Positions 25,820 through 61,684 of a DNA stretch of 64,000 bases are shown here, piece by piece. The translations under genes were made by a program, and so were the position numbers. Every line of letters begins with the position of its first letter. Within the stretch, counting starts at the first letter, position 1. Source of the DNA: Rhizophagus irregularis (Eukaryota); the NCBI RefSeq assembly GCF_026210795.1, contig NC_089433.1:3038001-3102000 (forward strand), read 5' to 3'. The notes under the pieces are model-generated. The model saw only the letters and a list, made by a program, of their open reading frames with translations, made no database searches and had not been told where the DNA came from.

Positions 25820-25868
25820 TTGTTCTCTTTTTCCCCCTTCTTTATTACCGATTTATCAGTGTGTAATA

Positions 25869-39052: not shown

Positions 39053-39243
39053 AGTAGTATAGAAATGCCAGTTCTGGCTCACTTTTCTTGGAGTCCAATC
39101 CTGGTTACCTTTTTCTTGCTATCCCCTTGTTGCTCTCCCACCGGCTGTGGGTCCGATCCTGGTCACCTTTTTATATTTTTCACCTACTTGTATCACCTTT
39201 TTTATATTTTTACCTACTTATATCCTACTTATCTCATAATCTA
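39053..39243. repeat. Polinton left TIR, outer part
   Basis: Reverse complement of ~61438-61684; continues at 48575 after the nested insertion. Confidence 0.92.
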
Positions 39244-40394
39244 CATCAGGAAATTATATAGTGCGAAAAGTTGCGCAAGTTTACACATCATAATATTTCG
39301 TAAGCTTCCAGACCCGCCGCAAGTTTGCGTAAGCGTAATATTTCGTAACTTTTTAAAATATTTCAAAATATTACGATATGCAAAGCTTCGTAATTTTACG
39401 ATTTGTAATATTCCGTAATTTTGCGGTTCGCAATATTTCGTAATTTTACATAATATTTCGTAAGTTTTCAGACCCGCCGCAAGTTTGCGTAAGCGTAATA
39501 TTTTGTAACTTTTTAAAATATTTCGAAATATTACTGTATGCAAGGCTTCGTAATTTTACGATTCGTAATATTCCGTAATTTTACTGCGTAATACTTCGCA
39601 ACTTTTTAAAATATTTCGAAATTCTATGATGCGTAATGTTCCATAATTTGACGATTCGTAATATTCTGTGATTTTACACAACTTAATATTTCGTAATATT
39701 TCAAAATATTTCGATAAATAATACTTCATTTTCTGTACTATAAGTTTATATAATGTATGTTTTATTAGATATAATCATAAAAAATTACAAGTATTTATTA
39801 ATATATACAGAATACATAAAAGTAAAAAAGAGAAAGAGTAGAGTAACAATATTATTAGACGTAAAAAGAAGAGAAACAGCTATAGTAACGTTAGTATTAG
39901 ATATAAAGATAAAAGAAATATTGTTATTATTGTTAGTATTAAGGTAAAAAGAGTTAAAGAAACAGTAAAAGGAGTAAAAGAAACATGGATATTATCGTTA
40001 GTATTAAAGTACAAGTAAAAAGGAATAAAGGAAACGTAGATAGTATTGTTAGTATTACGACATAAAGTAACAAAGAGGTAAAAAAAAATGAAAATAATTA
40101 GTATTAATAAACAAATATTTCTATACCTGCAAAGCAATAAATTATGAAATATATGTAAATATATTGTATATAATTAAAGAAATAATAGAAAGAAGAGACA
40201 AAAAAATTAAAAATATTGAACAAAAGAATAAAGAAATAAGAAACAAAAATAAATAAGACAAAAACGCGTGCATGATTAAATGATTAAATGATTAAATCAC
40301 ATGCAAGGATCAGCCTAATTTGATTGGCCAGAAAATACGATATCGTAAAATTACGGAAATCCGCATTTTAAAAAATCACAGAAATTGTATATGC

Positions 40395-40600
40395 ACAATT
40401 ACTAAATATTATCCCCTCGTGATAAATTAAAAATTATCAACACAAATTCAACACAAATTTAACAAATTTAACGAAATTTGGCCAAAATTAACAAATTTTT
40501 ACCAGAATTATCAACACAAATTGAACACAAATTGAACACAAATTTCAGCCACGATTTATTTATGTCACACCCGTGTTGTTAAGAATTAATAACCATTTTA
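40395..40600. repeat. Internal inverted repeat, left arm
   Basis: Reverse complement of ~46285-46490 (CAACACAAATT-rich). Confidence 0.9.
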
Positions 40601-40668
40601 TTTATTAAAACTATATTAATTATGGTAAAAAAAATGCTATTACGTGTGATATATATAAAAAATAATAT

Positions 40669-42089
40669 TTATTTTTTATGCAACCCATAATTCTCTAATA
40701 AACTATTTACATACCGACCTTCCTCCTCCGTGTTATAAGAGTCAATAGAAAGTATATCATCGTCAGCTATGCCATCATTGGCCGCACCATCGTTGGCCGT
40801 ACCATTGTTGGCCGCATCATCGTTAGCCGCACCATCGTTAGGCCTACCATCGTTAGTCACATCATCATCAGCCGCACCTGCTCTATCGTCAGCTGCTCTA
40901 TCACCACCATCGTCTACATCATTACCATCATGAGAATCATCGTCCGAATGTGTAAATTTATCCCTATTTTCCAACTTTTGCTAAAAATCAATAAATAAAT
41001 AAATAAACTGTAATTCAAATAATTCACATTTTGCAAATTGTAAATTAAAAACTTACTAAGTTGTTGATTATCTTCGACTTCATTATACTTTCGCTCATTT
41101 GAATGTTTTGATTATTAGGATTTAAGTACGTTTCACATATGCTAATCGCATACGCTATTTGTGTTTTTGAGAGATTTTTATTTTCTTTTCGCAACTTATC
41201 AATTATCAGCGACATATATGTCGTAGGTTGCCCATCTTTAACCTTTTTAAATAGGTTGTTGTAACATCTTTTCACCTCCGCCTTACTCTTCCATTCCTGA
41301 ATCTTTGACGGACTAGCCTGAGTGTTAATAGACGGTAATTTATGCCCAGTCGCTTCGAAAACAGAATACATAACGTCTTTAACTCTAGACGTAAACGTCC
41401 CTCGTATGCTTCTATGTTGTTGTACTAACTATTAAAAAAAAATGTTAGTATGAAATTTAATAAAATTCATAATTGCTTTAACTTACAGTCGGGGCAATTT
41501 TTTTTTTCGAAAAAAATAATCCATTGATTTTTTTTGAACTGGCGCATAAATTCCGGATTTTCGTCTTTTAAATATTTTTCGGTAGCGAGTTTGTACTCGT
41601 CTTGCGAAGGATAAACAAAATTTTCAAATAAAATTTTCGATACCTTCTTAACGAGCTCCTAATCAAACGAGGTTAGCATTTCAGGTTTACATTAAATAAT
41701 ATTCATCTTTATTACCTTTACATACTCCGGATCTATTGTATTATTATTATTTTTGTTATTATCGTTGAGCTTTTTTTCTATGCTCGAGAGACGGGTTTCG
41801 AGATTTTTTTGTCCGGTGATAAGAACTTCAAGCTTAGAAATTATCTGCGAATTGGTTCTTAATAGTTTTTCTATTGTTTTTTTATTAACTTTAACAATAA
41901 AATATAATTTAACTATATATTATATAATTTCTTTTATAAAGAATATGATACATATTATGTCATATATACCATCAACACTATCATCGGATATTCTCACTCG
42001 CTTCTCAGCTTCGCTACCCTCAGTACTACGTTTTGAAAATCTTTCATTATCATCAATTCTTCATTTCTCGCCACGCTTTGTAGCCATTA
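40669..42089 (-). pseudogene. Multi-exon accessory gene of the Plavaka element, acidic C-terminus, early premature stop
   Basis: MATKRGEK*RIDDNERFSKR... at 42089, further exons at ~41715-41890, 41045-41430 and 40669-40980 bounded by GT-AG; divergent from the transposase. Confidence 0.55.
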
Positions 42090-43208
42090 TGATAATAAAT
42101 TTGAAACGAAAATATGAGAAAAAGGAGGAAATATATGAGAAAAAAGAGGAAATATATGAGAAAAAAGAGGAAATATATGAGAAAAAGGTGAACTAGAAAA
42201 TTCGAAAAGGATGAGGAAAAAGGGGGAAATACATGAATCAGAAATTCAGAAAAAGGAGGCAAGCTGTCATAAGGTAATTTCCGCCATTCTATACTAAAAA
42301 AGAAAAAAAACTTGCGAAATATTGCGAAAAATGGATGAACTAATGTGAAATATTACAAAAAATGAATGTACTAATGCAAAAATTTTGCATCGTGATATTA
42401 CGAAAAAATATTGTAACACTTTCATAAGAGAACTTTAAAAAAAAACTCTCGTAAAAGCACATAGTACAATCGAAATATTAATCAAATCCAATTTATAAAA
42501 AAATAACATGTTACACATGTTGGGGCTTTTATGCATGGAAAAAAAAGTTGCAGCCAGTGAACTCATTTGGCTGATCAGATTGATAGTGATCTTGAGCGCT
42601 TATAACCTGATTATCGCATAAATTTGTGGCTGATCATCCGTCCATTATTGTAAAAGTGATTTGCCGTGTTAAGCCAATAAATTTGCGGCTGATTATCAGA
42701 TGATTAGCCGATTGAATAAGCCATCCGAATTCTTACAGCCCGTTACAGCAAATTCAAAATATGCGAAACACTCAGCACTTTTGCTGTCAGATTCACTTGG
42801 CAGGTTGCCGGCAAATTGAAATAGTAAATAAAATAATAAACAATATTTATATGGTACATCATAGACTTGTTACATTTATTTTTAAATTTGCCAACCCACG
42901 AACTTGGCAAGTTCCCGACAGCAAAATTGCTGAGTGTTTCGCATATTTTAAATTTTGCTATAATGCGTAAAATTGCGAATGATTCCGCGATATTAGCCAC
43001 CAGATTCTTACAGCCAGTTCCATTCATTAATGCGTAAATTTGCGTAGTCGTGTCTATTCAAATAACTCAATCAATTGTAATCCATTCAATTAATTCATTA
43101 AATTTTTACAATGAATTTGCAATATAATTTTATTAGCACACATAATCTCATATAAATTAAATAGTGAATTGATACTTTTCATCAAATTTGACGCGTTAAT
43201 TTAGTAAC

Positions 43209-46188
43209 ATGAGTTTCAAATGCCCCCTTTGTATGCGAATATTCAGTCAACGCTTTGCATATACTCAACACGCCCAAAAATGCTTAAAAAATGTAGAAGT
43301 AGAAGTAGAAGATGATGATGATAATAATGATAGTGAAAAATATAGCAGTGAAATGGATACAAGAAGTAATCTAAGTAGTGAATATGAAAATGATAAAGTT
43401 GAGGTAATTATGTTATTCCAGATTATTCTTTTTAAAGAAAAAGCTCAAATTATACTAACTCATTTTGGTTTATAATTTTAGGTGAATGATGATAATAATG
43501 TACAAAATATGTCATTTGACAGTATTGGAAGTGCAATATCAGAGATGAGCCTTGAAGATAGTAACTTTGAAAATATATTAGATTCATCTGAAGAGCCTGA
43601 AATTTTTGAAGAACCCAAAAATCTCAATACCAAAACTTGCACAGAATTTCCTAATGATGCTTATAAAGATCTAATGTTATTAGTAACGAAATATAAAATA
43701 AACAATAAAGGTGGTAATGAAATAATACGTTTTTTTAATAAACATTCAAATCTTACAGAATCACCATTACCAAAAAATATCGAACAGGGACGAGCATTTA
43801 TGAATAATATGAAGTTTTCTAATTTAGAATTTAGTAAAGTTCTTATAACAAAACATAAAGATAAAGATTATTTTCTTTATTATCAAAACTTAATACAGTG
43901 CATCAAAAATATCTTAACTGTTCCTGACATAACACAAAATTTTGCGCTATCTTACGAAAACTATGAGGTAAATAGTAAATATTAGTTAATTCAATAATTT
44001 AAATAATATTTATTTTAATTTATTTATATTATTTTATAGTATAATAGAGAAAGAATTTACAGTGAACAAAACACTGGAAAATGGTGGAAAACTACGCAAG
44101 AATCCTTACCTACTGGTTCCAAATTATTATCAATTATTTTATATTCAGATGCAACAACTACAGATACATTAGGAAAAAGTCAATTGCATCCAATATATAT
44201 TACATTAGGTAATATCCCAATATGGCGTCGTAATAAACAGGATGCAAAGCAACTTTTGGGATATTTACCAATTTTAGAAGCTGCAAATAAAGATCTGGTT
44301 CGTGATACCTTTCATAAATCTTTACATCATTTACTAGAACCTATTATTTTATTAAAAGATGGTATAGACCTTTTTATAAATAATGAAAATACCTGGTTTT
44401 ATCCTAGAGTTTCAACTATTATTGCAGATTGGCCAGAGGCCGCAAGTTTTTGTTTAGTTTATAAATCCTCCAATTCAAACCTTCCATGTCACTCCTGTTT
44501 AGTTAAAAGGGAAAATCTTGCAAATATAGACTTATCGGTTAACGATGTAATACTAAGAACTCATGATGAAATGCGTAAACATTTTGAAAATGATACACAA
44601 AGATCTGTTTGCATAGAATCTGTACATAATTTTTTTTGGGATTTACCGTAAGTATGCAAAAGTAGAAATAATTATAATAACATATATAATTAATTATAAA
44701 TATTTATATTATCAAGGAATATAAATATCTACTTGGCTACTGTTTCTGACAGAATGCATCATTTAGATTTAGGTTTATTTCATTATCAAATTATCTTCAC
44801 GTGCGATATCTTAAAATTGCAACATGTTAATGGTAATAAATTAGTTGAAGAAGTAGATCGCCGTCTAGCAGCAATCCCACGTTTTCCCGCCATTAAAATT
44901 TTTTCCAATGGACTGCAGTCAATTGCAAGATTAACTGCTAATGAATATCGAAGTTTGATGAAAGTCATGATATTTGTTATTGATAATTTATATGATGAAA
45001 ATAACAATGAAGTAGATAATTTTGTAAATAATGATGATCTTACGAAATTGTACGAATATTGGAATGAAATGTATATTTTAAGTAGATATGAAGAATTTAG
45101 TGAAAGTGACTTGGAGAAATTTAATGTATGTATTAAAATTTTAGTAAAATTGAAAATTTAAATTAAATAAATTAAATTAACATTTAAGTTTTAGAATGCA
45201 ATACATAGATGGGCCCGGATGTTTGTCAAGGCTTTTAAATTTGTTTCTCCTTCCAATTTGAAGTTACCTAAATTGCATTCATGGGTTTATCATATTATTG
45301 ACTCAATACGATCTTATGGCGCAATAAATGGCTATACTACAGAAACTTACGAAAGTCTTCACAAATATTTCGTTAAAATACCCTACCGAATTAGCAATAA
45401 AAAAGATGTCAAACCTCAGATTTTACGAACTGTAAGTATTTGAAAATTTTATTTATTGTATATATTTATTATATAACTTAAGATGGAAATTAAATTAATA
45501 GATAAAACGTCAAGCAATATCTATTAGAATGTCTCAACATTCAGTGAATCCGGCAAAAACACCTCGCACTTGTAAATTTTCTGCAAGACTCTTTGAATTC
45601 TCTTTACAAGATGCAAATACATTTTTTAATGAAAAAAAAGATTCCGTAGACAATAAAATGCAGACTGGTTTTGCTAGATTTATAAGTTGTCTGGATTCAT
45701 ATCTAGATTTACTTGATGGTTTCACAATTATTGGTGAAACCCGAATAAATATATACGGATCGGTAACACTGGAAAATGGTGCCATAATGCGTGCCACAAA
45801 CAGGTATCATAATAAAGTATGGTTTAGCGACATAGCTATTTCAATGGATTCTGAAGAATCAAATGATTATATATCAGACAAAGGACTTTGTTATGGACAG
45901 GTATTTTTCCAATTTATGTAATAATTTATTATAAAAGTATTAATAAATATTTATTATTTATAGGCCTTATTGTTAGCAGAAGTATTAACAGACCCACCGC
46001 TAAATCTCGCATTAATTCAATGGTACGATTTTAAATCTAAAAGGAACCCATATTTATATGGATGTCCTCACTTAAAATTGATAGAATTATATAACTTTGT
46101 AGCTATAGAGTCTATACATGGTGTCGTTCACATAGTACCCCGATTTGATAAACAAAATGAATATTTCGTAAATAAATATATTTTTTAG
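43209..46188 (+). CDS. Plavaka (CMC/CACTA-related) transposase with N-terminal zinc finger, about 7 exons
   Basis: CPLC...HAQKC; YSDATTTDTLGKSQLHPIYITLGNIP; ADWPEA; PCHSC; DRMHHLDLGLF; LPKLHSW...TTETYESLHK; GT-AG introns between the listed ORFs. Confidence 0.88.
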
Positions 46189-46284
46189 TCACTTGATATA
46201 GGAGTTTTGATTTATTTTAATAAAATTATATCCTTAAAAGAATTTATGGTCACGTTTTCCATATCATAAATAAAATGCAGATTT

Positions 46285-46490
46285 ATTTATTTAATTATTA
46301 ACAACATGGGCGTGACATAAATAAATCGTGACTGAAATTTGTGTTCAATTTGTGTTGATAATTCTGGTAAAAAATTTGTTAATTTTGGCCAAATTTCGTT
46401 AAATTTGTTAAATTTGTGTTGAGTTTGTGTTGAATTTGTGTTGCGTAATTTTTATTTATCACAAGGGGATGATATTTAGTAATTGCATGT
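46285..46490. repeat. Internal inverted repeat, right arm
   Basis: Reverse complement of ~40395-40600. Confidence 0.9.
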
Positions 46491-46996
46491 ACGACGTACA
46501 AGATTTTTTTTATGATTTTTTTAAGAAATGTACGCAAAATATTTAATCAGAATATAATTGTTTTATTTTTAAATATGATATATTGATGATTTTTTTTTAA
46601 AATTCAATAGAATGTGCTAATAATAAATTGTTTTATTTTTAAATATAATATATTGATATTTATATTTAAATAACCAAAACATGTACATGATTTTTAATTA
46701 TTTTTAATTGAAATCAAACTAAGATTTTTTTTTAAAAAAAAATTAAAATAAATTAAGTGATTTATATCTATATTTAGAATCATGATATTTATATTTAGAT
46801 AATCCATATCCGCATGAGATTTAATTAATATGTTTAATGATGAAAAGTCTAATAAATTAAATTTTAATTGAAACGAGAAATAAAATCAAACCAAAGAGGT
46901 ATTGTTCAAATTTTATTTAAAGTGACATTTTACGACTTTCTTTCAAATTTTTACTCATCCCAAAATCAAATTATAAAAATAAAATCAAATCTAATA

Positions 46997-47637
46997 ATGC
47001 CTCGCCAAACACGTCGTCGTTCTTATAACGTCCATTGGAACTGGGCTATGATGGACGAACTTGTCGACATATGCCGCGACAGAAACCACGCCTACCATAA
47101 TATTAATGGTAGAAGCCGCCATGATTTTTGGGACTCTGTTGCCAATAGGTTCATATGACTAATATCTATAATTTTCTTTAAGAAAGAATTTAAATTCAAA
47201 TTAACCAATCCATTTAATTGAATCAGAATAAATAGAATATTTCGAACGAGGGTTTCTGGGCAACAGTGCAGCCAAAAGTGGAGGAACCTCGTCAGGGATT
47301 ACCATGTAAGTAAATAAATAAAATTACATTCATTTAAATTAAATGTATTTACCGAATATTCAAACTGATTTTGATATTTAGAACTATGTCCTTTATCGTA
47401 ATGGTATCCCTGATCGGCCTGGGCGGCGGCTGTGGACGCGTACCGGCCAAAGATATTATCGCGAATTTAGAACGAGATTTTGGGAGAGGCCGGGTAATTA
47501 TACTATAATAAAATTTTATAATTAATATTACATTCTATTTTACGTTCACATTTTAAATTTGATAAATTTGATCAATTTTAGATATGCGTGACGATCGTAG
47601 GAGAAGGAGAAACTTACCTACGTATCGTAGAAGATAA
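46997..47637 (+). CDS. Small Myb/SANT-like (trihelix) DNA-binding protein, 4 exons
   Basis: Exons 46997-47148, 47227-47305, 47382-47493 and 47582-47637 give ...HWNWAMMDELV...FWDSVANRINRIFRTRVSGQQCSQKWRNLVRDY...; the W-W-W spacing is that of trihelix domains. Confidence 0.8.
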
Positions 47638-47718
47638 TTATTTTTATTTTTTTATTTATTAAGTGAGTAGCTAGGCCCAGTCCGTACCAAATATCGGCTG
47701 GAGACTCACGTTTTTTTT

Positions 47719-47792
47719 GGGCTGTGACTGATACTGACGTCCACGCCGTACAGCCTGAATACTATTTTATAAAATAGTAGCGAACAAGTATC
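47719..47792 (+). ncRNA. HDV-like self-cleaving ribozyme (predicted)
   Basis: P1 GGGCTGT/ACAGCCT (G1-U wobble), P2 GATACT/AGTATC, P3 ACG/CGT, L3 TCCACGC, P4 TACTATTTT/AAAATAGTA, J4/2 GCGAA. Confidence 0.75.
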
Positions 47793-48034
47793 AAATGTAT
47801 ATTTTTTTATTAAGTTATAATAAAAATTAGAATTTACTTTAATTTTTAACATAAAAATTGTAAATAATAAAAAATTCGTAAATAAAAATAAATTTGCTTT
47901 CCCAAACTTAAAAAAAAAGGTGTTTATATAAAAGAAAAGGTGTTTATATTATTTTTGATTATTCAATAGTATCACATGCCCCTTGTATATGTTCTACTGC
48001 ATACGCAGTTTACAATCTCGTAAATTTTCAAAAC

Positions 48035-48400
48035 GGAATATTACGCAGGTTTACAGTCTCGTAAATTTTCGAAATATTTCAACCGTAATATTACGCAGGT
48101 TTACAGTTTCGTAAATTTTCGAAATATTTTAACCGTAATATTACGCAGGTTTACAGTCTCGTAAATTTTCGAAATATTTCAACCGTAATATTACACAGGT
48201 TTACAGTCTCGTAAATTTTTGAAATATTTCAACCGTAATATTACGCAGGTTTACAGTTTCGTAAATTTTTGAAATATTTCAACCGTAATATTACGCAGGT
48301 TTACAGTTTCGTAAATTTTCGAAATATTTCAACCGTAATATTACGCAGGTTTACAGTTTCGTAAATTTGCAGAATATTTTGACCATAATATTGCGTAAAT
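48035..48400. repeat. Subterminal 50-bp tandem repeat (about 7 copies)
   Basis: AATATTACGCAGGTTTACAGTYTCGTAAATTTTCGAAATATTTCAACCGT repeated head to tail. Confidence 0.93.
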
Positions 48401-48574
48401 CTTACGATATTGTAAACTTACGTAATATTTTAACCGTAATATCACATAAATCTTACGAAATTGTAAACTTACGTAATATTTTGAAATTTTTTGAAATATT
48501 ATGCCATAAACTTTCATAAACTTACAAAATCGTAAACTTACGCAATTTTTCGCGCTATAAAATTTCCTGATGTA

Positions 48575-48792
48575 ATTCACTTATATCCTACTTATTTCAT
48601 AATCTAAATCGTTTATTAATATTTTCACCTACTTACCCCCCAACCGAACAAGAAATAGGATTTCAAAGCCAACAGAGCCAAAAAAGGTAAGGAAATATTA
48701 ACCCATCCAGGAAACCAGCCATGGAGTCAATAGAGTGGAATAGCAAGGCAAGCAATTACCCTTATACCGAGAAAAAATGTAATTGAATAAAA
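48575..48792. repeat. Polinton left TIR, inner part
   Basis: Reverse complement of ~61220-61437. Confidence 0.92.
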
Positions 48793-48832
48793 GGTAGGTA
48801 CCAAATAACTATACAGATAAACAGTACATAAC

Positions 48833-49279
48833 ATGGCATATACCGCGGAAAAGTTGGCATCAATCTTCGGCTGCACAGTCTCCAATCTTATGGCTATCAA
48901 TAGGGAGATCCTAAAAAGCCACCAAACCCCGTATGCAGTATCAGTAATCCCCGAACTTGTAGGCCATATCCTGGAATACATTCCAAGTAGAAATTTCGGG
49001 ACACATCTTCTAGAAGTCAGCCCAATCTGGAGAGTTGAAGCTGAACGAGTACTCTGGAAGCGGCATAAAGAAGCCGAGGAGGCATACGACAGGGCAGTAG
49101 AAAAGAAGGAAAAAGCAAATGATGCTCTTGGTCGATCAGAGGAGGAGGGTAATAGAAATCGTGACCTCCGTGAACTTGAATGGGAGGCATATCAAAAGGC
49201 TTGTAAAGAGAGAACAAATGCCGCAGTAGAGCATATTATGGTAAAAGAAGCTATTCGCCATTGTAACTTACAACTATAA
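48833..49279 (+). CDS. Polinton ORF, possible F-box-like + coiled-coil protein
   Basis: IPELVGHILEYI...LLEVSPIWR resembles the F-box pattern (LPxEllxxIfxyL...vcrxW); charged helical tail. Confidence 0.5.
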   Translation: MAYTAEKLASIFGCTVSNLMAINREILKSHQTPYAVSVIPELVGHILEYIPSRNFGTHLLEVSPIWRVEAERVLWKRHKEAEEAYDRAVEKKEKANDALGRSEEEGNRNRDLRELEWEAYQKACKERTNAAVEHIMVKEAIRHCNLQL

Positions 49280-49481: not shown

Positions 49482-52400
49482 ATGTCAACACATCAAGCAA
49501 GAAGTGCCCAACACAGACAAGTCATCCGATCAGTTTTAGCTGAACTCAAGCAGGTATTTGTCAAGTCCATCTCATATCCCCGCTCAAATGCAAAATTGCA
49601 GGAATATGAGGATGAGATCCGCCAAATCCGTGAAGCACAAGCGGTAGTAACCAATGAAGAGATAACCCGCATGATGCAAATTGACCCAAACCCACATTAT
49701 GAGGTAGTCTTTGAACGTCGTGATCAGGTACATATAGGAAAGGAGTTAACAGACTCAAACTTTACGGCTGATATTGCTATAAGAACACCTGGAGAGCATG
49801 ACTATGCTTCATTTCTTACAGCACACAGTTAAACAATCCAGAATATTCTTCGGGATGAAAGAAATCGATTGGGATCAATAAAAGTAAGAATTGGAATATT
49901 TGCCACAATAAGACGTTTAGATTCTTACCTTGAGGGATTATTCAGAGATGGTAACTTTAGTGAAGATGATGGAGTAGAGTATATCTACAGATATAACATA
50001 CCATTTAAAACTCGCAATATGCCAATCCTACCATCAACAGATATTAATGGTGCATTTAACTTTGCATTAGCAAGAATCATGCAGAAAGTAGAAGACTATG
50101 TAAATTACAGATCAGGTTGGGAATTCTATCGTGTAGAAAAAATATTTATAGAAATCTCACAATTCCAACCACCCACAGGAGCAGGACACATACCACTCCC
50201 AAAAGATCTTGCCACGAAAAAGGGAGTAGTAAATCCAGCTAATGATGATGACAAATGCTTCCAGTGGGCAATCCTAGCAGCATTACATCCAGTAGAAAAG
50301 AATGCAGAAAGAATTTCCAAGTATAAGGAGTATGTAAATGAGTTAAACTTTGAAGGTATCGAATTTCCAGTACAAGCTGATGAGGTAATTCTAAGAAGAT
50401 TTGAGCGACAGAACCCAACTATTGCCCTCTGCATTTGTGAATGGCGTGACCACCGCCTATGTCCAATATATGTTACCGATAGGGATGATGCAGAGGGCCG
50501 TAAAATAATAGATTTAGTACTTATCAGTAACGGGGAAAAGCAGCACTATTGCTGGATTAAGAATATGAGCCATTTAGTAAATAAACGTACAAAAAATGGA
50601 CATGCAATATTTGTCTGCCGATGGTGTATCTCCCACTTCACACATCAACAAGAAATTCATGACAAACATGTAGCAATATGTCGAGGATTAAAGAAAACCC
50701 CACAAGCAGACCGCATGCCATCAGTAAAGAAAGGAAATGATATATATGAATTCAAGAACTGGAAACGCCGCATGCAAGTCCCATATTACTTTGTTGCAGA
50801 CTTTGAAGCCCTAGTAATGGACATACCACCCACAGATGAAGACAAAGATAAAAAAACCAAGAAAGTGCAAGAGCAAATCCCCTGCTCATACTCGTATATT
50901 AAGGTAAGATATGATGGTGTAAGTGAATCACAGAAGATATTTACAGGAGAAAATGTAGCACAAAAATTTGTAATCGAAATGCTAAATGAGGCTGAAGCAA
51001 TCCGTAATGAATTCAGAAACCCAATGGAAATGATGCCGTTAACAACCCAAGAGCAAGTAAGTTATGATAATGCAATAAACTGCTGGATATGTCGTAACCC
51101 CTTAGATGGAAATAAAGTAAGAGACCACTGCCATATTACAGGAAGGTATCGAGGTGCAGCACATAAAGGATGCAATCTTGACTTATCCATAAAACCTCGT
51201 GAAATGCATATCCCAGTAATCTTTCACAATTTATCAGGATATGATGGACACATAATTATGCAAGGAATTGGTGCAATGGAATGTGAGGATGATATTGATC
51301 CTATCCTTTATAACATGGAAAAGTATATGGCATTCAAGTTAGGTTCCCTCCGATTTATAGACAGCTTACAATTCATGAAATCAAGTCTCGACAAATTAGC
51401 ATCCAACCTAGGCGCAGAAAAATGTAGAGCACAAAAATGTAGTAATCCACAACACTTATGGCGAATTGATGCAGGTAGATGCTTTGCACATCCCGAAAAC
51501 TTTAAGATAACACGAAGTTAAATACCACCTGAATTACTCGAGATTTATCTTAAGAAAGGTGTCTACCCGTATGAATACATGGATGACTGGAAAAAGTTCG
51601 AGAAAACTAGTTTACCACCTAAAGAAGCATTCTATAGCAAACTTAATGAAACCCACATTAGTGATAAAGAATATGAATATGCACTGTATGTATGGGAAAA
51701 AGCAGGATGTAAAACAATGCAAGATTATCATGACATTTATCTCAAAACTGACGTCCTCCTACTAGCCGATATATTTCAGAATTTCCGAGAAATGGCCTTG
51801 AAAAAATATGGGTTAGATCCTCTCTGGTATTACTCAATACCAGGCTTTGCATGGGATGCACTATTCTTCATGACAGGGCAAAGATTGGATCTTATAACTG
51901 ACCAGGATATGTACATGATGGTAGAACAAGGATTACGTGGTGGAATCTCTATGGTAAGTAAACGATATGCTCGTGCAAATAACCCAGATATGGGAGAAGG
52001 TAAATGGACCGCAGAAAAGCCCAAGTCATCTATCCTATACTTAGATGCAAATAACTTATATGAATGGGCCATGTTGCAATACTTACCTACAGGTAACTTC
52101 CACTGGGTAAAGGAGGAAAACGAGTTATCTAACATTCAAAGGCAAATAGAAAGTAATGAAATACCAGATGATTCTTCTGAGGGATATATCCTTAAAGTCA
52201 AACTGGAGTACCCTCAAGCCCTCCATTCACAACACACAGATTACCCTCTTGCACCAGAACGAATGAAGGTTAAGAAGGAATGGCTTAGTAAAAAGCAGCA
52301 GAAAATAATAGCACGCTCAGGACAACGATATACACCCACAGATAAGCTCATCCCTAACCTATTTGATAAGGATGAATATGTAGTTCATTATAGAAATCTC

Positions 52401-53377
52401 CAGTATTATGTTAGCCAGGGCTTAGTAATCAAGAAGGTCTATGAAGCTATAAAATTCGAGCAGGCTCCATGGATGAAACCATATATAGAATTTAACACCG
52501 CCGAACGTGCTAAGGCTAAGAATGATTTTGAGAAGGACTTCTATAAACTCATGAATAATAGTGTATTTAGTAAAACTATGGAAAATCTCAGGAAACGTGT
52601 ACGTGTCTCAGTAGTACAACCCAAAACCCATCCCAAGAAATATAAAAAGCTTACCTCAGATCCTGCATTCAAGGGTCATAAAATATTCTCAGAAAATCTT
52701 GTTGCAATCCACTGACGAAAAGTGGAGGTAATGCTTAACCGTCCAATATATGTGGGTATAAGTGTGCTTGACCTCTCGAAGCTCTGTATATATCAATTCT
52801 ACTATGATACTCTTAAAGTACGATATGGTGAAAAAATCCAGTTATGTTATACAAACACAGACTCACTTCTTGTACAAATCCAAACTGAGGATATTAATGC
52901 AGACCTTATAGATATGGCAGACCAATTTGACTTCAGTGATTATCCTAAAGATCATCCTGTACGAAAAGCATTAGGTGATAAGACTGACATAAATATGAAA
53001 ATCCCAGGGAAATTTAAGGATGAATGTAATGGAGCAGTTATAGCAGAATTTATTGGCCTCCGTCCCAAAATGTACTCCATTCTCAAGGTAGGGGATGAGA
53101 CCACCAATCCAAAACATGGTATCCGTAAAGCTAAAGGTGTCCCCTCAAAGGTAGTTAAAAAAGAGTTCCACTATGAGCGGTATAATAAAGCACTCTTTGA
53201 TCCTAAACATAATGATACAGTCACCTTTAGAGCAATCCGATCTGATAGACATGCCATAAATGTTATAGAAATGTCGAAGGTGGGGTTATCCCCTATGGAT
53301 GATAAAAATGGATTGCACAAGATAATATCACAATGTATGCACATGGAGACTATAGGATACCACAACTTGAAAATTAA
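49482..53377 (+). pseudogene. Protein-primed family B DNA polymerase (pPolB), inactivated
   Basis: VADFEA, FHNLSGYDGH, FIDSLQFM, KGVYPYEY, YLDANNLY, KLMNNSVF, YTNTDS, KAKGV; EndoVII-like insert CWIC...DHCH...GCN. Stops at ~49830, 51519 and 52713; frameshift at ~53308. Confidence 0.95.
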
Positions 53378-54444
53378 TATAATATATGAGTAGGAGGCAG
53401 CATAGTATCAGATGGCACAACTAATAATTCTTCTCGAGTAAATATTTTTTTAGGTCCATCAGATAACCTATATATAACCGGCTGCCCATCAACAACTGTG
53501 GAAGATTCAATTGTATAAACTTTAATAGACCATATTGGATCAGTTGCACGTCTCCTACCTTGGTAATCTGAGTTATCAAGTAAGTATCTCACAAGAGAAC
53601 CAGCTGGTAAACGTATTTCTTCTGCACCTACAGGTCTATCCTTCCGAATTTTTGAAGGTAGTGCATACACTTGATCTTTCTGGATTGCCTCAACTGGAGA
53701 CATACCTAGCAGACGAGTATTAGAATTATTTAGCTCATTCACAATATCAGAAAGGTTCTTAACCCAGGCAGTATTCACACCTTCTGTAAGGAGTTCCTTT
53801 GCATCCTGTATTTTAAAAAGTCTTTCTGCTAAAGTTCGATTATACCGTTCAACAATAGCCTGACTCTTATGAGTAGTATCCACCCGAATACGCACACCTT
53901 TTTCATCCATTAATCGGATAACTTCATCCTTAAATTCTGATTCTCCATCTACTTGTAAAACTCTTGGCCAAATAAGCGGGCAGTCTGCTTTACTATAAAT
54001 CTTTTTAAATGCCTTAGCAACACGTGCAGAGCTGCGATCTTCTAGAGATACTGAAGCTTTATATCGGCTAGCAACATCTACAATATTCAGACAGTATTTA
54101 TACAGCTTTCTATCTACAGTATCATAGGGCATATATAAGATATCTGCTTGATGATACATATTTGGTCGAGTAATTTTATTAAAAGAAACCTGTGAAACAT
54201 ACTTGGGTATAGATGAGTGTATTTGCCATATAGCCTGTTTATGCAACCACTCTGTAATATCAGATATGTTAAAATCATGACCCTCAGCTTGCACTTTAGC
54301 CCAAAGTTTTTCAGGAGTACGATAATATCCACATGGATGGTAATAGATTTGTTGAAGGATATAATTTTGTTTGATTTGTTTATTAAATGTAGGGTCTATA
54401 AAAATCTGTGGAACTGGCAATGGAAGATACATCGTTAAAGACAC
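53374..54444 (-). CDS. Polinton retroviral-like (rve) integrase
   Basis: IYYHPCGY, HQADILYM, IVDVASRY, QVDGESEF, VERYNRTL and WSIKVYTI; convergent with pPolB with overlapping stop codons. Confidence 0.92.
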   Translation of the reverse strand: MSLTMYLPLPVPQIFIDPTFNKQIKQNYILQQIYYHPCGYYRTPEKLWAKVQAEGHDFNISDITEWLHKQAIWQIHSSIPKYVSQVSFNKITRPNMYHQADILYMPYDTVDRKLYKYCLNIVDVASRYKASVSLEDRSSARVAKAFKKIYSKADCPLIWPRVLQVDGESEFKDEVIRLMDEKGVRIRVDTTHKSQAIVERYNRTLAERLFKIQDAKELLTEGVNTAWVKNLSDIVNELNNSNTRLLGMSPVEAIQKDQVYALPSKIRKDRPVGAEEIRLPAGSLVRYLLDNSDYQGRRRATDPIWSIKVYTIESSTVVDGQPVIYRLSDGPKKIFTREELLVVPSDTMLPPTHILY

Positions 54445-57400
54445 AGATTACAAAGCTTGCACATACATTGCAATCACAAGAGCAATATATAAAATACCTG
54501 TATGGTGTAATCGAGGGTCATGAATCTGAGATAGAAGAACTTAGGCAAAAAAATGCTAAGTTGCGTGCAAAGCTTAAGAAAGCATTAGAAACGGCATCAC
54601 TAAAGGAGGAAGGGCTTCAAGCATTAGAACGTCAGCTGATTGAAGTTGATACTCTAAATATTCAACTTAAAGATCGAATAAAAGAACTTGCTAATAGACA
54701 ACGGAAAAACATGGCAGCAATTTCTCCTGACCCTATTACAGAAATCTTAAATAATCGGACAACTATAGCAAATAGTGTAGCTGGTATTCGTATTCACCTT
54801 GATCGTACAACTATTGCAGCACACCCTCATATAAATCATTTATTTAACACTGCAAATGATAGTTTTGATGCCATTATCCAATATGCTAATGAGTTGCGAA
54901 ATATTATAGAAGATCAAGATAATATGGAGGATAGACTTGAAGGTTTGTTAGATGATGCACATAACCGTGAAGAATATCTTAGACAAGAACTTAATAATAC
55001 ACGTGCTACTATACTGAGAACAAGACGTACTTATGAGGATGCATATGCAAATGAAGTGCGTCATCGCCAATATTGGGAAGCCCTTACACAAAATACTCAG
55101 ATCCAATTGGCTAACATCCAGGCTCAATTTGCTAACAGTCAAATCCAACTAGCTAATGTCCAGAGAGAACGTGATGAGAGTAGAAGAAATGCTCATAGAT
55201 TATTACAGCGCTATAATACTGAAACAGAGTGAAGTAGAAGGCGGGCTAATGGTATCATTCAGCAAGCTCGAGCATAGAGAGGGCAATTTTTAAACTGTCG
55301 CAATCATGGTCAAAATTTGCAAAATCAGGTCAATAATTTGAATCAACAGATTCTAGCATTACAAAATAACCCTCCGATAATACAACAACCGATAATGGCA
55401 AGATATGCACCTAAAAAATTTAGAGGAGCATCTGGTGAAGATCCAGAACTTTGGCTTCAAGAATTCAGGCAATGGTGTGAGTCTGCTGGACTTGATCCTG
55501 CTGCTAATGCTAGAACTCGTATTAGGATTCATGGGGTCTTTGAAACTTTACTTGAAGATGATGCTAGAGATTGGTATGAAACACATATCAAAGGAAAAAA
55601 TTGGGAATGTGTAAATCTTCTGGATAATACTGGTGTGGCCAATCTTGCTGCTTTTAATGCTTTGAATAATGGTGCTATACAGGCTGTAGCGGCGAATCAA
55701 TTTCGTGGAGGGGCTGGTGTATTACATGGACAAGCAGCTGCAGTTAATACTATTACTGGTGCTAATTTTATACCTAATCATACTGTATGGGATGAAGATT
55801 GGTCAATAGCTGAGGGTCGTCCTACTGATATAGCTGTTAATAATCCTAATGCTAATAATGGAGGTACAATTGTGGCTCCTGGAATACGTATTGGACAATT
55901 AATATATCGTTTTAAGCATTACTTTCCTACTATAACATCTGAAAAGTCTAAGCTTGCATTTAATGCTATCGTTCAGGGTAGTGATACTGTAAGCCGATTC
56001 TATTCTAAATTACGAAGAATGGTTAGACTTGCATATCCAACTCTTCCAGAGGTAAATCAGAATGAATTAGTACGGCAACAGTTCTTAAATGGTCTTTCCA
56101 GTGAAAATAAGTTGGATGCGCGACGTATTAGTTTAGAAAATTCAGTTGCATCTATTCTGAATAAATTGGAAGAAGTTGAGAAATACAGGACAGATATGCC
56201 ACCTACTCCTATAGTTACATATCAGGGTCCAACTTTAGCAGATATTGAGAATCTTATAAATTCTAAAATTCCTATGACTACGGCTAGATCATCTGCAGTA
56301 CCAGTACCATCTTCTAGTCCATTTTCAAGTCCTCAAAATGATACATCATTTCAGAGATTACTTGCTTTAGCATATAAATTAGGTCTTCCAAGAGATATCG
56401 ATATAAGTAAAGTAACCCTTAGTGATCTTGAAATATTTATTGATACAGAACTTAATAAAAATTTACCATCTGACCATATTTACCGTGGTAATCAGGTATT
56501 TGGTATAAGTTCAGGTACACGCAAACCAAAGAAATCAAAGAAATGCTCAAGTTGTGGAAAATCTGGTCATACTAAGAGTTCCTGTCCAAAATCTAAGAAG
56601 GGGAAGAGGAAAACAAATTATGCACAAGACTCCTCTAATTCCTCTAACTCTTCTGATGCCTCTGACTCCTCTGACTCCTCTGATAGTGATTCAAACTCTG
56701 GACATGCCTGCTATAGATTAAAAAAAAAGCCTACAGAAAGGAAACGTGTAGATAAAAAGCCTACTGATAAGAAAAAATCACAACTTGAAAGGCAGCGTAT
56801 TATCTTTGAGGTTTTTATACAACTCTTAAAGCTTCTGGTTCAATCCTTCGTTAATGCTGTACTAAAAGAGACTGTTATATCTGCTTACAATGCTCTGAAT
56901 GCTGAATTCATTAATTATAAAGAACCAGTACTCAGTCAGCTTAAAGGAGAACTCTCGATAAAAACACGTGAAAAAGTTTGGGATAATGTTAAGGACCTTT
57001 TCACATCTATCCTTCATCCTATGATTTCGGTTGTAACTAATAGTATGGCTGCAAATTTAATCCGTAAAAATGATGATGTTATATGTAATAATGACTTATG
57101 GTCTTCTATAGCAGGTATTGGAATTGTTAACCGCAAGTCTGCTAGTGATGTAGTCACTATTAAGACTAAAGTAGTCGCACCTGAGAGTGAAAAATCTTTA
57201 GTTATTCCTACGACAATTTTCGATACTGGTTCTGATAGTTCTCTAATATCTAACAATATCGTGAAGCGCCTAAATCTTGATGTTGATAGAAGTAATGCTC
57301 CTGACCTTAGTGGTGTTGCGACAAAATCTGATACTATTGGGACAGTATATGGTCTTGGTATCCTTGTATATGATGGAGAGAACTCTAAAAAAATTGAAGA

Positions 57401-58834
57401 TGACTTCATGGTTGTTAAGAGTGATAAGGACTTTTTATTACTGGGTGTACCTTGGATTGATCGTGCTTAAAGCTCGAACGGTTCAGGCTAAACCGGGGAA
57501 CCGATCCGAAACTGGCTCAAAATTCGGTTCGGTTCGGTTCGGGTATTAGAACCGAAAAACTGGCGGTTCAGTTCAGTTTAATCCGATTTTTTATAAAAAT
57601 GCGAAAAATCGAATAGCCGGCCATCTAGTGATCGTATAAAGTCGAGCCATATATTATTGGATTCCTCTCGATGAGACGCGTCGAATGGTGGTAAGATCAT
57701 GTCTCTAGCATCGATAGATCACACGTCAACCCACGCTAAATGATTTATAAATAATTGGAATTAGAAAGCTATCTATCTGTGCTAGAGACATGATCTTAGC
57801 ACCATTCGACGCGTCTCAGTGAGACAAATCCAATGAATATAAATTCGTTCGTGTACGACCACTGGATGGCGAATAATATCAAGTTTCGCATTTTTTTAAA
57901 ATTTTCGAGCGTTAAAAATTAAATTTCCGATACATGAATTTATTCGTTGTCCAATGGTCGTATAAATATGAATTAGTACTCATTAGATTCGTCTCGATGA
58001 GACGAGTCGAATGGTGGTAAGATCACGTCTCTAGCATCGATAGATAGCTTGCTAATGCCAATTTTTTATAAATTATTTAGCGTGAATTAACTTACGATCT
58101 ATTAATGCTAGAGACATGATCTCACCACCATTCGACTCGTCCCATCGAGACGAATCCAATGAGTCCTAATTCATATTTGTAGGACCATTGGACGACGAAT
58201 AAATTCATGTATCGGAATTTTTAATTTTTAACGCTCGAAAATTTTAAAAAAATGAGAAACTTGATATTATTCGCCATCCAGTGGTCGTACATGAACGAAT
58301 TTATATTCATTGGATTCGTCTCACTGAGACGCGTCGAATGGTGCTAAGATCATGTCTCTAGCACCGATAGATAGCTTGCTAATTCCAATTATTGATAAAT
58401 CATTTAGCGTGCGTTAACGTGTGTTCTATTGATGCTAGAGACATGATCTTACCACCATTCGACGCGTCACGTCGAGACGAATCCAATGATATATGGTTCG
58501 ACTTTATACGATCACTAGATGGCCGGCTATTCGATTTTTCGCATTTTTATAAAAATCAGATTAAACCGAACCGAACCGCCGGTTTTTCAGTTTGGTTTTT
58601 ACGGATTTCGGCTCTAATCCGAACCGTCTATAATCCGGACCAAACCGACCCGTTCGGAGCTTTAATCATGCTAATGTCATTCTAGATTTCCAAAATCGGC
58701 AATTGACCATCCCTCTATCATCACATAAAAAAATTACCATTCCAATTTCTCTACATAAACAGAAAACTAACGTGACTTCTTTGCAGATGGATACTATCGA
58801 CTTAAAAAAAATTCACACTCTCGAGGAAGATTAA
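54420..58834 (+). pseudogene. Coiled coil + Gag-like capsid + CCHC knuckle + aspartic protease polyprotein (two premature stops, MITE insertion)
   Basis: One frame from 54420 through stops at ~55230 and ~55275. Motifs PKKFRGASGEDPELW, LEDDARDWY, QGSDTVSRFYSKL...FLNGL, CSSCGKSGHTKSSC, FDTGSDSSLIS and LLLGVPWI. The frame resumes after the MITE (DRANVILDFQNRQLTIP...EED*). Confidence 0.85.
57468..58664. mobile_element. hAT-type foldback MITE (family 3) interrupting the protease domain
   Basis: TIR TAAAGCTCGAACGG...CCGTTCGGAGCTTTA; 8-bp TSD ATCGTGCT/ATCATGCT; the body is a near-complete ~1.1-kb palindrome centred near 58085. Confidence 0.9.
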
Positions 58835-58934
58835 CCTGTTATCCATGTGGAGCAAGTTTTGACTTTCCCTCTAAGTTAAAGCGTCATCTTGCTAGGAAAA
58901 ATCCATGTGTTTCCCAAACTTCTGCAGCAATGAT

Positions 58935-59065: not shown

Positions 59066-59081
59066 TTAGCCTTTACAAATA

Positions 59082-59594
59082 TTACATTTGCCATGTTACT
59101 CTGATTTCTAGGTCTTTACGGGTTTCTATGAGTTTTTCAATGGCATTTCTATTTTTAAAATATCGACTATATCTGATATCTATCATTCGAAGGTTTGGTA
59201 ATATATGCAGAATTTCACTTAGCAAATCTCTAACGTCACCTTTTCCACCATAGTATTGATAATCTATTATGCTAAGTTCCTGGATATTGGGGCAAGCTTG
59301 TAGCATTTTTACAATACAGATAGGCCATAATAATACTCCATCCATATTAAGCTTTCTGATATATTTTCCACATACTGTCCCTGGTTTTGTGAGATGTTTG
59401 TACATTTGGAACTCCTTAATATTATAGCGGTTATAAAGGTCTGTTTCACCCCATAGGAGAGAGTTTGCTACTACAGCCCATTTTCGACACACTAATGCAT
59501 AATTGCAAAGATAATGCCAACGGTAGTAAGTGCCTTCATATGTAGTTTTGAATATCTTTTCTAAAAGTTCGAAAGGTAAGCTATTGTTTGTCAT
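59082..59594 (-). CDS. F-box + leucine-rich-repeat-like protein
   Basis: SLPFELLEKIF...ALVCRKW F-box; CPNIQELSI and LPNLRMIDI LRR-like motifs. Confidence 0.8.
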   Translation of the reverse strand: MTNNSLPFELLEKIFKTTYEGTYYRWHYLCNYALVCRKWAVVANSLLWGETDLYNRYNIKEFQMYKHLTKPGTVCGKYIRKLNMDGVLLWPICIVKMLQACPNIQELSIIDYQYYGGKGDVRDLLSEILHILPNLRMIDIRYSRYFKNRNAIEKLIETRKDLEIRVTWQM

Positions 59595-59699
59595 GGTATC
59601 TCATATGAGATATTGATGAAGAAGTTTTATTTAATTAGATTTTTTTCTTAAGATAAAATAATTTGAACATTTCTTTTCTATCAATAGAAAAAACCAGAC

Positions 59700-60491
59700 A
59701 TGCTTACTTTTAGTGAACTTACTCCATCTCTTACTGTTACTGAATTTAAGATCAATGTTGAAGGGCTTGATTACACCGTGCTTGGTCATAAGCTTGAACC
59801 TACTAAGGATGTTATTGCCATTAATAGCAACTTTATTCATAAAGTTTTTGAGGGTTATGAACAGTACTTGTCTAAACCAAAAGGTGAGAGACGATGCAGA
59901 AGAAGTACACCTGACAATCCATTAAATAGGCGGCGACGTACTGGGAATGGTAGCACTTTTAATGCTTGCATTGAGTTTGTTATCATTTTAGCTGATACTG
60001 TACATACCATTCGTTATTTTCCTAGATCTGGTAGTATACAAGTTTTCAGGTCTTTTGATCCTGTTGCTATCTTCTTACGTTACCTTTCTGAATGTTCCCT
60101 ACCTGAGTTTTCTTCTGTAGAACTTGTGGGTGGAAATAAGGCTCTCCTGTGTAATTACAAATTTGTGATTAATATCGGGAGTAATAAGTTTATTCATCTT
60201 TCTACCTTAGCATATGCTTTAGAATCTGTAGATGGTATTCGTGAGATTCTCCCCTTTTCGATAAAGTATATTAAGAATGATGCAGGTGATATTCATTCTA
60301 AAATTGCTATAATCTTCACATCAAAGATTCGGGTACATATCTGGCCTAAATCTGGTAAGGTTAATATATTTGGCACTAAGACTGAATTGGCTGCTGATAT
60401 GATTTATAAGTTCTTACAGAAGTTGTTTTCTAATCCGAATGATTTTGGGGATTTTATTTGTGATGTACCTATTCCAGATTGTGAGAGGTAA
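59700..60491 (+). CDS. Putative divergent TATA-binding-protein-like protein
   Basis: Two related repeats, IRYFPRSGSIQVF and VHIWPKSGKVNIFG, match the twice-occurring TBP strand motif (xxIFxSGKxxxxG); 263 aa. Confidence 0.55.
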   Translation: MLTFSELTPSLTVTEFKINVEGLDYTVLGHKLEPTKDVIAINSNFIHKVFEGYEQYLSKPKGERRCRRSTPDNPLNRRRRTGNGSTFNACIEFVIILADTVHTIRYFPRSGSIQVFRSFDPVAIFLRYLSECSLPEFSSVELVGGNKALLCNYKFVINIGSNKFIHLSTLAYALESVDGIREILPFSIKYIKNDAGDIHSKIAIIFTSKIRVHIWPKSGKVNIFGTKTELAADMIYKFLQKLFSNPNDFGDFICDVPIPDCER

Positions 60492-60510
60492 AAAATGGTT
60501 TCACTGGGAA

Positions 60511-61194
60511 CTAGAAATCCTCTATTTGTAAAATCCAGCAATCACATTCCTGGCTTCTTATTGGTATAAGACATTCGTCACATAGAGTTATAGCCAACTC
60601 ATTTTTTAGTCTATCTAGCTGACTCTCGGTGGTCGGTGCAAGATTCTGATAGTATTCATTGAATTCATTCTGCTTTACTTCATCTATGTCTTCATCTGTG
60701 TCTTCATCTGTGTCTTCGTCCATATCTTCATCTCCTTTAATATGGTAGATGCTGAATTTATTTCTATATTCATCATTAGAATTTGTGAATATTCTTTGTA
60801 TATTGTAATCTATAATGTTGAATGTTATAGGTTTCTTTTTTGATAATATTTCTACTAAGTCTAATAATGCATATGCTAATTCTTTATCCTCTGAGAAGTT
60901 CTTAATGATATCTGAAAATCTTTCATATATTGCCATCTCATCTGGTAGAATAGAATATCTTATTCGTGATAAAAGTGATGGATGTATCCATATATCATCA
61001 CCTTCTAACATCTCATCAAATATTTCTACTAGCTCTTCTAATCCAGATACTAACATACTTTCTTTGCTAAATTCGGAATCTAAAGCTTTTAAATATGCTA
61101 TATCTAAATACCACATTATTTCCTTTACCCATTCTTCTATGTTGAGTTCAAACTGACCTAGTATACGTCTTAGTGATGGTCTGTATTGTGACAT
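60511..61194 (-). CDS. Acidic hypothetical protein with C-terminal Cys cluster
   Basis: 227-aa ORF with DEDT repeats and CDEC...CDC; preceded by the same upstream motif as pPolB. Confidence 0.6.
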   Translation of the reverse strand: MSQYRPSLRRILGQFELNIEEWVKEIMWYLDIAYLKALDSEFSKESMLVSGLEELVEIFDEMLEGDDIWIHPSLLSRIRYSILPDEMAIYERFSDIIKNFSEDKELAYALLDLVEILSKKKPITFNIIDYNIQRIFTNSNDEYRNKFSIYHIKGDEDMDEDTDEDTDEDIDEVKQNEFNEYYQNLAPTTESQLDRLKNELAITLCDECLIPIRSQECDCWILQIEDF

Positions 61195-61219
61195 CTTGTA
61201 AACCTTTTATATATAAATC

Positions 61220-61684
61220 TTTTATTCAATTACATTTTTTCTCGGTATAAGAGTAATTGCTTGCCTTGCTATTCCGCTCTATTGACTCCATGGCTGGTTT
61301 CCTGGATGGGTTAATATTTTCTTACCTTTTTTGGCTCCGTTGGCTTTGAAATCCTATTTCTTGTTCGGTTGGGGGGTAAGTAGGTGAAAATATTAATAAA
61401 CAATTTAGATTATGAAATAAGTAGGATATAAGTGAATTAGATTATGAGATAAGTAGAATATAAATAGGTAAAAATATAAAAAAGGTGATATAAGTAGGTG
61501 AAAAATATAAAAAGGTGACCAGGATTGGACCCACAGCCGGTGGGAGAGCAACGGGGATAGCAAAAAAAGGGTTGTCAGGATTGGACCCACAGCCGGTGGG
61601 AGAGCAACAAGGGGATAGCAAGAAAAAGGTAACCAGGATTGGACTCTGAGGAAAGTGAGCCAGAACTGGCATTTCTATACTACT
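61220..61684. repeat. Polinton right TIR (~460 bp, with an internal ~60-bp duplication)
   Basis: Reverse complement of 39053-39243 + 48575-48792; CAGGATTGGACCCACAGCCGGTGGGAGAGCAAC occurs twice. Confidence 0.93.

Follow-up and report, generated by a model that had tools for sequence, protein, structure and literature searches.

A Rhizophagus irregularis Polinton that carries a Gag-protease and has no recognisable jelly-roll capsid genes

Polintons and their known relatives

Polintons (Mavericks) are DNA elements that excise, are copied from the ends of their terminal inverted repeats (TIRs) by a protein-primed family B DNA polymerase (pPolB), and are reinserted by a DDE integrase with a 6-bp duplication of the target. 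Canonical members also encode a double-jelly-roll major capsid protein (MCP), a penton protein, an FtsK/A32-like ATPase and an adenain protease. The element described here lies in a 64,000-nucleotide stretch of Rhizophagus irregularis (assembly GCF_026210795.1, contig NC_089433.1, positions 3,038,001 to 3,102,000; the whole stretch is termed the window). It is a degraded member of a lineage of fungal Polintons in which a retrotransposon-type Gag-protease stands in place of the jelly-roll capsid, the packaging ATPase and, apparently, the cysteine protease. The pPolB, rve integrase, long TIRs, AG-rich termini and 6-bp target-site duplication (TSD) are shared with canonical Polintons (Polintoviricetes), whereas the double-jelly-roll MCP, penton, A32/FtsK ATPase and cysteine protease are not found and a Gag-protease is present instead. 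Its modes of replication and integration mark the element as a Polinton; its virion genes are not those of a polintovirus, nor is it a long terminal repeat (LTR) retrotransposon.

Among the elements reported to have expanded recently in R. irregularis are Mavericks (PMC8647823), for which an expansion specific to Glomerales is also reported (PMC11952901). Table S1 of Krupovic et al. 2014 (PMC4028283) includes Polinton-1_GI (P_Gi1.1) of Glomus (Rhizophagus) intraradices, an 11,954-bp element without MCP, penton, ATPase or protease. The window element, with a net length of 12,105 bp, very likely belongs to this family, as compared by size, host genus and gene absences only; the table gives absences only, with no mention of a Gag. 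A second entry of that study, P_Gi1.2 (11,019 bp, ATPase only), parallels two metagenome loci treated below (L015 and L017). The Fig. 5 legend of Starrett et al. 2021 (PMC8502044) defines 'Matrix/Capsid/NC/Pro' (Gag/retropepsin) and 'TBP' on a 'related element', both of which the window element has in common with it. This 'related element' is probably of the same family, and the accessible parts of that text name no host, do not discuss the swap, and offer no test of conservation, selection or fold. The available portions of further accounts of fungal Mavericks, ATPases or related elements (PMC11952901, PMC8647823, PMC5751038, PMC11296320, PMC5294986, PMC3671162 and 10.64898/2026.06.19.733378) make no mention of a Polinton Gag. 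Full-text literature searches, which did not cover Kapitonov and Jurka 2006, Pritham 2007 or Krupovic and Koonin 2015 (these may mention a Gag-like open reading frame, ORF), returned no text that analyses a capsid swap. The novelty of the element is lowered by the 2014 entry and the 2021 label, since the family has probably been catalogued and once labelled before; a conserved and selected lineage trait is not shown in the literature searched.

Two other kinds of element share parts of this anatomy. The Gag-protease of Ty3/Gypsy elements (Metaviridae) and domesticated Gags (e.g., Arc, PEG10 and PNMA) resemble the window protein in a two-domain capsid (CA), a CCHC knuckle and a retropepsin. Unlike Ty3/Gypsy, the window element has no reverse transcriptase (RT), RNase H, LTR or in-line integrase, and its Gag differs in an extra coiled coil of ~320 aa in front, a ~100-aa insertion in CA and a helical spacer before the protease. 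Transpovirons (PMC11788076) are likewise linear, TIR-ended DNAs without a capsid of their own, and they show promoter signatures of the giant-virus type; they differ in that they encode a helicase, lack pPolB, integrase and Gag, and ride in the helper virion.

A Gag-protease gene conserved at one position

Relatives of the window integrase were gathered by a metagenome scan (the best 80 of 481 confirmed matches) to which 8 distant IMG/VR viral loci were added, giving 88 loci (labelled L###, with related proteins labelled P####). In a quick integrase tree, in which long branches meet at the root and from which 3 of the 88 loci (<220 aa) were left out, 26 loci fall on the side of the window integrase, outside a clade of 54 loci (support 95). 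Their low GC and their named homologues suggest that the 26 are fungal. Eighteen of these are informative in having at least 200 bp upstream of the integrase, and 15 of the 18 (integrases 43-85% identical) carry the same divergent coiled-coil Gag start. In nine of the 15, of which L010 and L013 are marginal, the contig extends to CA, nucleocapsid (NC) or protease; seven have pPolB on the same contig, with L003 and L004, which are 99.6% alike, counted as one. In L003, the F-box gene, protease, Gag, integrase and an open pPolB follow in the window's order. By contrast with these 15 loci, Gag matches are found in none of the 54 more distant metagenome loci and none of the 8 viral loci; MCP-like queries match 10 of the 54.

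The Gag and integrase genes start head to head. The divergent starts were claimed in the initial annotation to overlap, and they do, by 13 bp, because the integrase ATG sits at 54432 rather than at 54444, with the Gag ATG at 54420 on the opposite strand. The overlap is again 13 bp in L008, L009 and L011, and 19 bp in L007, L010 and L042. A TATA element within the coding sequence was considered for these overlapping starts and dropped, as it is not kept in L003, L008 and others.

Intact 1,069-aa Gag-proteases are encoded on three contigs of R. irregularis DAOM 197198, i.e., as the dispersed copies within one strain expected of a Polinton/Maverick, and the nearest named proteins are those of R. 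irregularis (95-98%). GBC25860.1 is an example of an intact natural Gag-protease. The Gag cluster has 66 members, with the intact copies among the 15 listed, and one Gag/integrase pair has consecutive accessions (GBC27048.2/GBC27049.2). The predicted ORF of about 1070 codons, composed of coiled coil, Gag, CCHC and aspartic protease, is thereby confirmed. Between the window and L003, dN/dS is 0.27 for CA, 0.31 for the NC region, 0.14 for the protease, and 0.10 for both the integrase and pPolB; between the window and L001, it is 0.19 for the Gag N-terminus and 0.16 for the integrase (pPolB of this pair is out of frame and was excluded). In less saturated pairs, the N-terminal part of Gag has a dN/dS of 0.19-0.42. 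Identity in the N-terminal part of Gag is correlated with that in the integrase (Mantel rho 0.46, p 0.0002) over 13 loci, which are related and not independent.

The polymerase and integrase tie this lineage to Polintons with capsids. As had been proposed, the element carries a pPolB and an rve integrase, the latter by its Pfam match; the two genes are convergent in the window, and both are related to those of MCP-bearing loci. In a FastTree phylogeny of pPolB (29 of 35 locus matches kept), the window, L001, L003, L005, L009 and L011 form one clade (support 100) that adjoins MCP-bearing Polintons; no close pPolB occurs among the IMG/VR matches. The pPolB of the window is broken by three stops, an altered motif C and a frameshift near 53303, while the frames of L003 (1,317 aa) and L011 (1,309 aa) are open. 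Short contigs over pPolB, integrase and Gag occur in two rhizosphere RNA runs at a depth of 2-6, for which DNA carry-over is possible.

The Gag gene has no flanking direct repeat of at least 14 bp that could represent an LTR, and an RT, queried with the window's own RT, is found neither in the Polinton nor in the 88 loci or the stored proteins. A search for Gag-Pol fusions among proteins of 1,919-5,000 aa turns up none, which is weak evidence. The lack of an RT or an LTR-like repeat and the conserved position agree with the earlier view of the Gag ORF as integral rather than nested. That view was to be abandoned if sister copies lacked Gag or carried an MCP or ATPase there, or if Gag lay inside an independent LTR element. 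The latter is not the case, and the former holds for three loci, weighed below, against the 15 that carry Gag. Because the position is conserved, selection is purifying, the modelled capsid fold is of the CA type and no LTR element of its own is found, the view withstands these tests, and the sequence comparisons indicate that the Gag-protease is a conserved, selected trait of the lineage and not a one-off capture.

Several related loci vary this layout. In a second subfamily (L012, L013, L015, L021, L024, L027, L029, L044, L045 and L064), an ORF of ~125 aa converges on the integrase and pPolB is not there; in four of these loci, the motif AATTGAATTTGTGTAC overlaps the start region of this ORF. 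The pPolB of L010, 28% identical, lies after the integrase and on the strand of the latter. P0052 is a 564-aa metagenome protein in which an aspartic protease is fused in line, not head to head, to the same integrase type. At L017:703-1554 and L015:1-200, the Polinton integrase is of the fungal type, and the gene immediately upstream of it is an A32 ATPase instead of Gag. The ATPase of L017 is preceded in turn by a coiled-coil ORF with weak similarity to the N-terminus of Gag (E 7e-5), a layout which suggests that a captured Gag may have been joined to a coiled coil that is native to Polintons.

Predicted folds of the capsid and protease domains

The capsid domain, modelled for the residues encoded at 55398-56240 from a 49-sequence alignment (pLDDT 89), is predicted to have the retroviral/retrotransposon CA fold, which answers the earlier call for a fold comparison of Gag against the jelly roll. 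In a VIA search, the 33 best rows (Z 10.8-6.2) are all retroviral or retrotransposon CA or domesticated Gags, including Rous sarcoma virus (RSV) CA (Z 9.9, rmsd 5.9, 179 residues aligned over 1-264) and the RSV C-terminal domain (Z 10.2, rmsd 2.2, 75 aligned). The top Foldseek ranks are the CA of HIV-1, PEG10 and murine leukemia virus (MLV). The CA N-terminal domain aligns with the Gag of the window's own LTR element (hhalign probability 96.6), to which it is homologous yet distant (branch 2.2, one LTR Gag tested). The Retrotrans_gag domain is found in 22 of the 49 aligned Gag members at E<=0.01. A PDB sequence search with Gag returns weak zinc-knuckle and dArc1 matches alone (E 0.17-0.6), and no stretch of the Gag alignment is conserved enough to serve as a scan query. 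The protease, modelled from its L003 homologue, matches the retroviral-type protease (RVP) domain of Ddi1 and retroviral proteases (E 1.4e-6), as expected of a retropepsin fold. Neither CA domain has been lost, and the knuckle and the catalytic DTG are likewise retained.

The window and L004 have the A-run of the Gag/protease junction in frame, and L003, L019 and L044 have it out of frame, which may reflect either homopolymer noise or a frameshift signal that has been retained. In the Gag tree, a clade of 21 rows consists of Gags most of which lack the coiled coil.

The usual virion genes

The absence of MCP, penton and ATPase, as first noted, is upheld by sequence and profile searches of the element: neither the 20 proteins taken from MCP-bearing relatives nor an MCP profile of 5 sequences match an MCP or penton, the two ORFs without an assigned family not having been folded, and a 6-sequence profile gives no match to an A32/FtsK ATPase. 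The sole Walker-A-like string in the element is off-frame in ORF1. The claim is less firmly grounded for the adenain-type cysteine protease, for which no ORF has a Pfam match and little room is left, no dedicated profile having been run. In the net Polinton, 575 bp are without assignment, in six gaps of which the longest is 264.

Possible roles of the Gag-protease

A Gag shell holding the element's own DNA is the somewhat favoured explanation. The Gag-protease would take over the whole morphogenesis set, with CA in place of MCP and penton and the retropepsin in place of the cysteine maturation protease. Cleavage of the polyprotein by the protease would release the coiled coil, CA and NC as separate products; a single-stranded or nascent replication form would be bound by the CCHC knuckle together with the basic tail, and the shell would assemble around this nucleic acid with integrase and polymerase inside, so that no packaging motor would be needed. 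Within the coenocytic hypha, such a particle may carry the element from one nucleus to another and shield it from silencing. Krupovic et al. 2014 (PMC4028283) describe a concerted loss of MCP, ATPase and protease in Polintons, and the Gag-protease would therefore fill the entire missing module. A wider and more tentative proposal is that of a fungal DNA 'virus' lineage with protein-primed replication and with its DNA in a Gag capsid that its own retropepsin matures; an Asfarviridae-like giant virus may be what switches this lineage on.

The deepest groupings of viruses are drawn mainly by the type of capsid. If the DNA-packaging explanation is true, (i) the jelly-roll virion module is replaceable wholesale by a retroelement module, (ii) a DNA genome need not be a product of reverse transcription for CA to package it, (iii) two unrelated virus groups are joined, in the form of a varidnaviral replication module and an Ortervirales virion module, and (iv) the capsid-less standing of the Glomus Polinton since 2014 is explained. 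Since intact natural copies exist, the packaging question is directly testable without repair.

Several observations weigh against a DNA-filled Gag shell as the settled trait of this lineage. CCHC knuckles typically bind RNA. The Foldseek E-values for CA are above 0.001, and VIA Z scores of about 10 are common among helical proteins, though the match list is uniform. Some dS values between the window and L003 are 1.0-2.5, near saturation, and one CA pair has a dN/dS of 0.58, over a poorly aligned stretch. Three of the 18 informative loci have no Gag beside the integrase (an A32 ATPase in L015 and L017, another ORF in L005); thus, the integrase lineage also exists without Gag, and MCP loss may have preceded Gag gain. 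Exchange of capsid domains between subfamilies is likely, as the CA regions of P0140 and P0147 are 32-37% identical to that of P0121, while the protease regions are 75% or nearly identical. No contig covers a distant member from TIR to TIR.

Gag shells or oligomers without a DNA genome, which would package the element's mRNA or serve as a chaperone or scaffold for the replication-integration complex, are a less probable alternative, though one to be taken seriously. Retroelement NC domains bind RNA, and Arc/PEG10-type Gags, whose folds are among the VIA matches, package mRNA; the long coiled coil and helical spacer are also unusual for CA-NC. However, packaged RNA cannot propagate the element without an RT, and none is found, so the benefit behind the low dN/dS would be indirect; the maturation protease, moreover, is kept at the low dN/dS given above. 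It is improbable that Gag is instead kept as a factor of defence or competition against LTR retrotransposons, i.e., as a dominant-negative capsid. Endogenised CA restriction factors do exist (Drt2, Ty1 CA-CTD factor; row 31 of the VIA matches), but what is kept here is the whole polyprotein, NC and protease included, and not a mere piece of CA, and its CA is far from the one LTR Gag compared. Least credible of all is that Gag was captured once only or is what remains of a nested LTR retrotransposon. The window copy is decayed and hosts two other nested elements, Gag is homologous to an LTR-element Gag, and the A-run of variable frame recalls frameshifting retroelements; the shared position and overlap across divergent integrases, the purifying selection, the several intact copies and the lack of any RT or LTR already contradict it.

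Parasitism of an Asfarviridae-like giant virus, in which the helper polymerase would transcribe the element and spread would occur in a Gag shell or the helper virion, is rather unlikely as a separate account and is compatible with DNA packaging in a Gag shell. R. irregularis carries Asfarviridae-like endogenous DNA (PMC10640383), and PMC11788076 describes the AAAATTGA early promoter for pacmanvirus, African swine fever virus (ASFV) and mimivirus. A 20-bp motif of the AATTGAATAAAA type, which resembles this promoter inexactly, lies 23-40 nt ahead of each of four ATGs of the element, with 4 matches per 64 kb against 0.02 expected for a pattern that was chosen post hoc, two of the copies being in the TIRs. 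Its core, AATT(T)GAA, precedes polB in L003, L010 and L011, i.e., in all three relatives with a known pPolB start. The TATA-binding protein (TBP)-like gene, for its part, is nearest to Nucleocytoviricota clusters. Against this, the exact octamer AAAATTGA is at none of the four sites, and no such motif precedes Gag or the integrase in the window. The motif, a candidate promoter, also contains AATAAA, which is present in the window's LTRs as well; at one site it could act as a poly(A) signal instead. The upstream motif and the TBP-like gene together may hint at dependence on a helper virus.

Boundaries, nested insertions and accessory genes

The AGTAGT and ACTACT termini, long TIRs and 6-bp TSD of the initial annotation are all present, with GTGCTG on both flanks (Table 1). 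The boundaries of a complete element therefore stand; its apparent size of 22.6 kb does not, since two later insertions (10.5 kb) account for the excess over the net 12.1 kb. One insertion splits the left TIR in two and contains a Plavaka transposase (PF18759, E 7e-26, Pfam). The other is a miniature inverted-repeat transposable element (MITE), presumably hAT-like given its TSD length, which is missing in sister copies and whose empty site is bridged by contigs of runs X4, X16, X17 and X20. A loose end in run X5 joins left-flank letters straight to 61685, as at an empty site. A 25-bp stretch is repeated on both flanks of the Polinton (about 38910 and 61852).

Table 1. Features of the Polinton and its insertions (window coordinates)
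Feature	Position	Strand	Remarks
Left TSD copy, GTGCTG	39047..39052		6 bp
Whole Polinton	39053-61684		AGTAGT start, ACTACT end
Left TIR, outer part	39053..39243		AGTAGT start; 185/191 identical (97%) to right TIR
Nested DNA transposon(s), foreign to the Polinton	39244..48573		9,330 bp; inverted ends; TA duplication
Inner inverted-repeat-bounded element with broken Plavaka transposase	~40396-46485		inside the 39244-48573 element
Left TIR, inner part	48574..48793		215/220 identical (98%) to right TIR
Candidate early-promoter motif AAAAAWSTAATTRAATAAAA	49439..49458; 48773-48792; 59625-59644; 61220-61239	+; +; -; -
ORF1, no assigned family	48833..49279	+	F-box-like by eye only; may extend to 49360 in intact copies
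pPolB	49482..53393	+	embedded endonuclease-VII-like stretch
rve (DDE) integrase	53374..54432	-	352 aa, open frame; PF00665 E 5.5e-8, above cut-off; D-D-E motifs present
Gag N-terminal coiled-coil region	54420..55397	+	2 stops here; intact in P0312, P0313, P0319
Gag two-domain capsid (CA)	55398..56240	+	~100-aa insertion in N-terminal domain
Gag linker, one CCHC zinc knuckle, Ser/Asp tract, A-run at Gag/protease junction	56241..56729	+	
Gag helical spacer domain and retropepsin-type aspartic protease (DTG)	56730..57467	+	
Nested MITE	57468..58664		1,197 bp; 8-bp TSD; splits protease end of Gag gene
Protease C-terminal tail	58665..58817	+	resumes past MITE
F-box-like gene	59082..59594	-	PF12937 E 3.6e-6
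TBP-like gene	59700..60491	+	nearest to Nucleocytoviricota clusters
Acidic ORF, no assigned family	60511..61194	-	227 aa
Right TIR	61219..61684		466 bp; ACTACT end
Right TSD copy, GTGCTG	61685..61690

Of the two F-box-like genes proposed initially, the one at 59594-59082 is borne out by its Pfam match, and a homologue adjoins the protease end in L003. The other, ORF1 at 48833, is unconfirmed, with no Pfam or PHROG match and no similarity to the first. The TBP-like gene is recognised as suggested: it has no Pfam match by itself, and its Atlas matches score 0.92-0.95, with 26 of 30 in PF00352 sets. The one ORF described as unknown, the acidic ORF, has no Pfam or PHROG match and no Atlas lead above 0.78. 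A 41-bp tandem repeat (3.2 copies, 58936-59065) lies between the convergent Gag and F-box ends.

Other elements in the window

The window also holds further repeats. The LTR retrotransposon at ~10192-20900 has identical LTR stretches, a Gag with a long N-terminal extension, and a Pol frame with an extra terminal domain of ~200 aa after RNase H (12643-13260, minus strand) that includes a P-loop-like 'DGVDGLGKT'. A non-LTR element (LINE-like, labelled by motif only) at 23778-31255 has an ORF1 and a 1,672-aa endonuclease-RT-RNase H-like frame. A satellite array of ~78-bp AT-rich units occupies 1-2450, and a transposase-like gene in pieces (34840-38495) adjoins the Polinton on the left.

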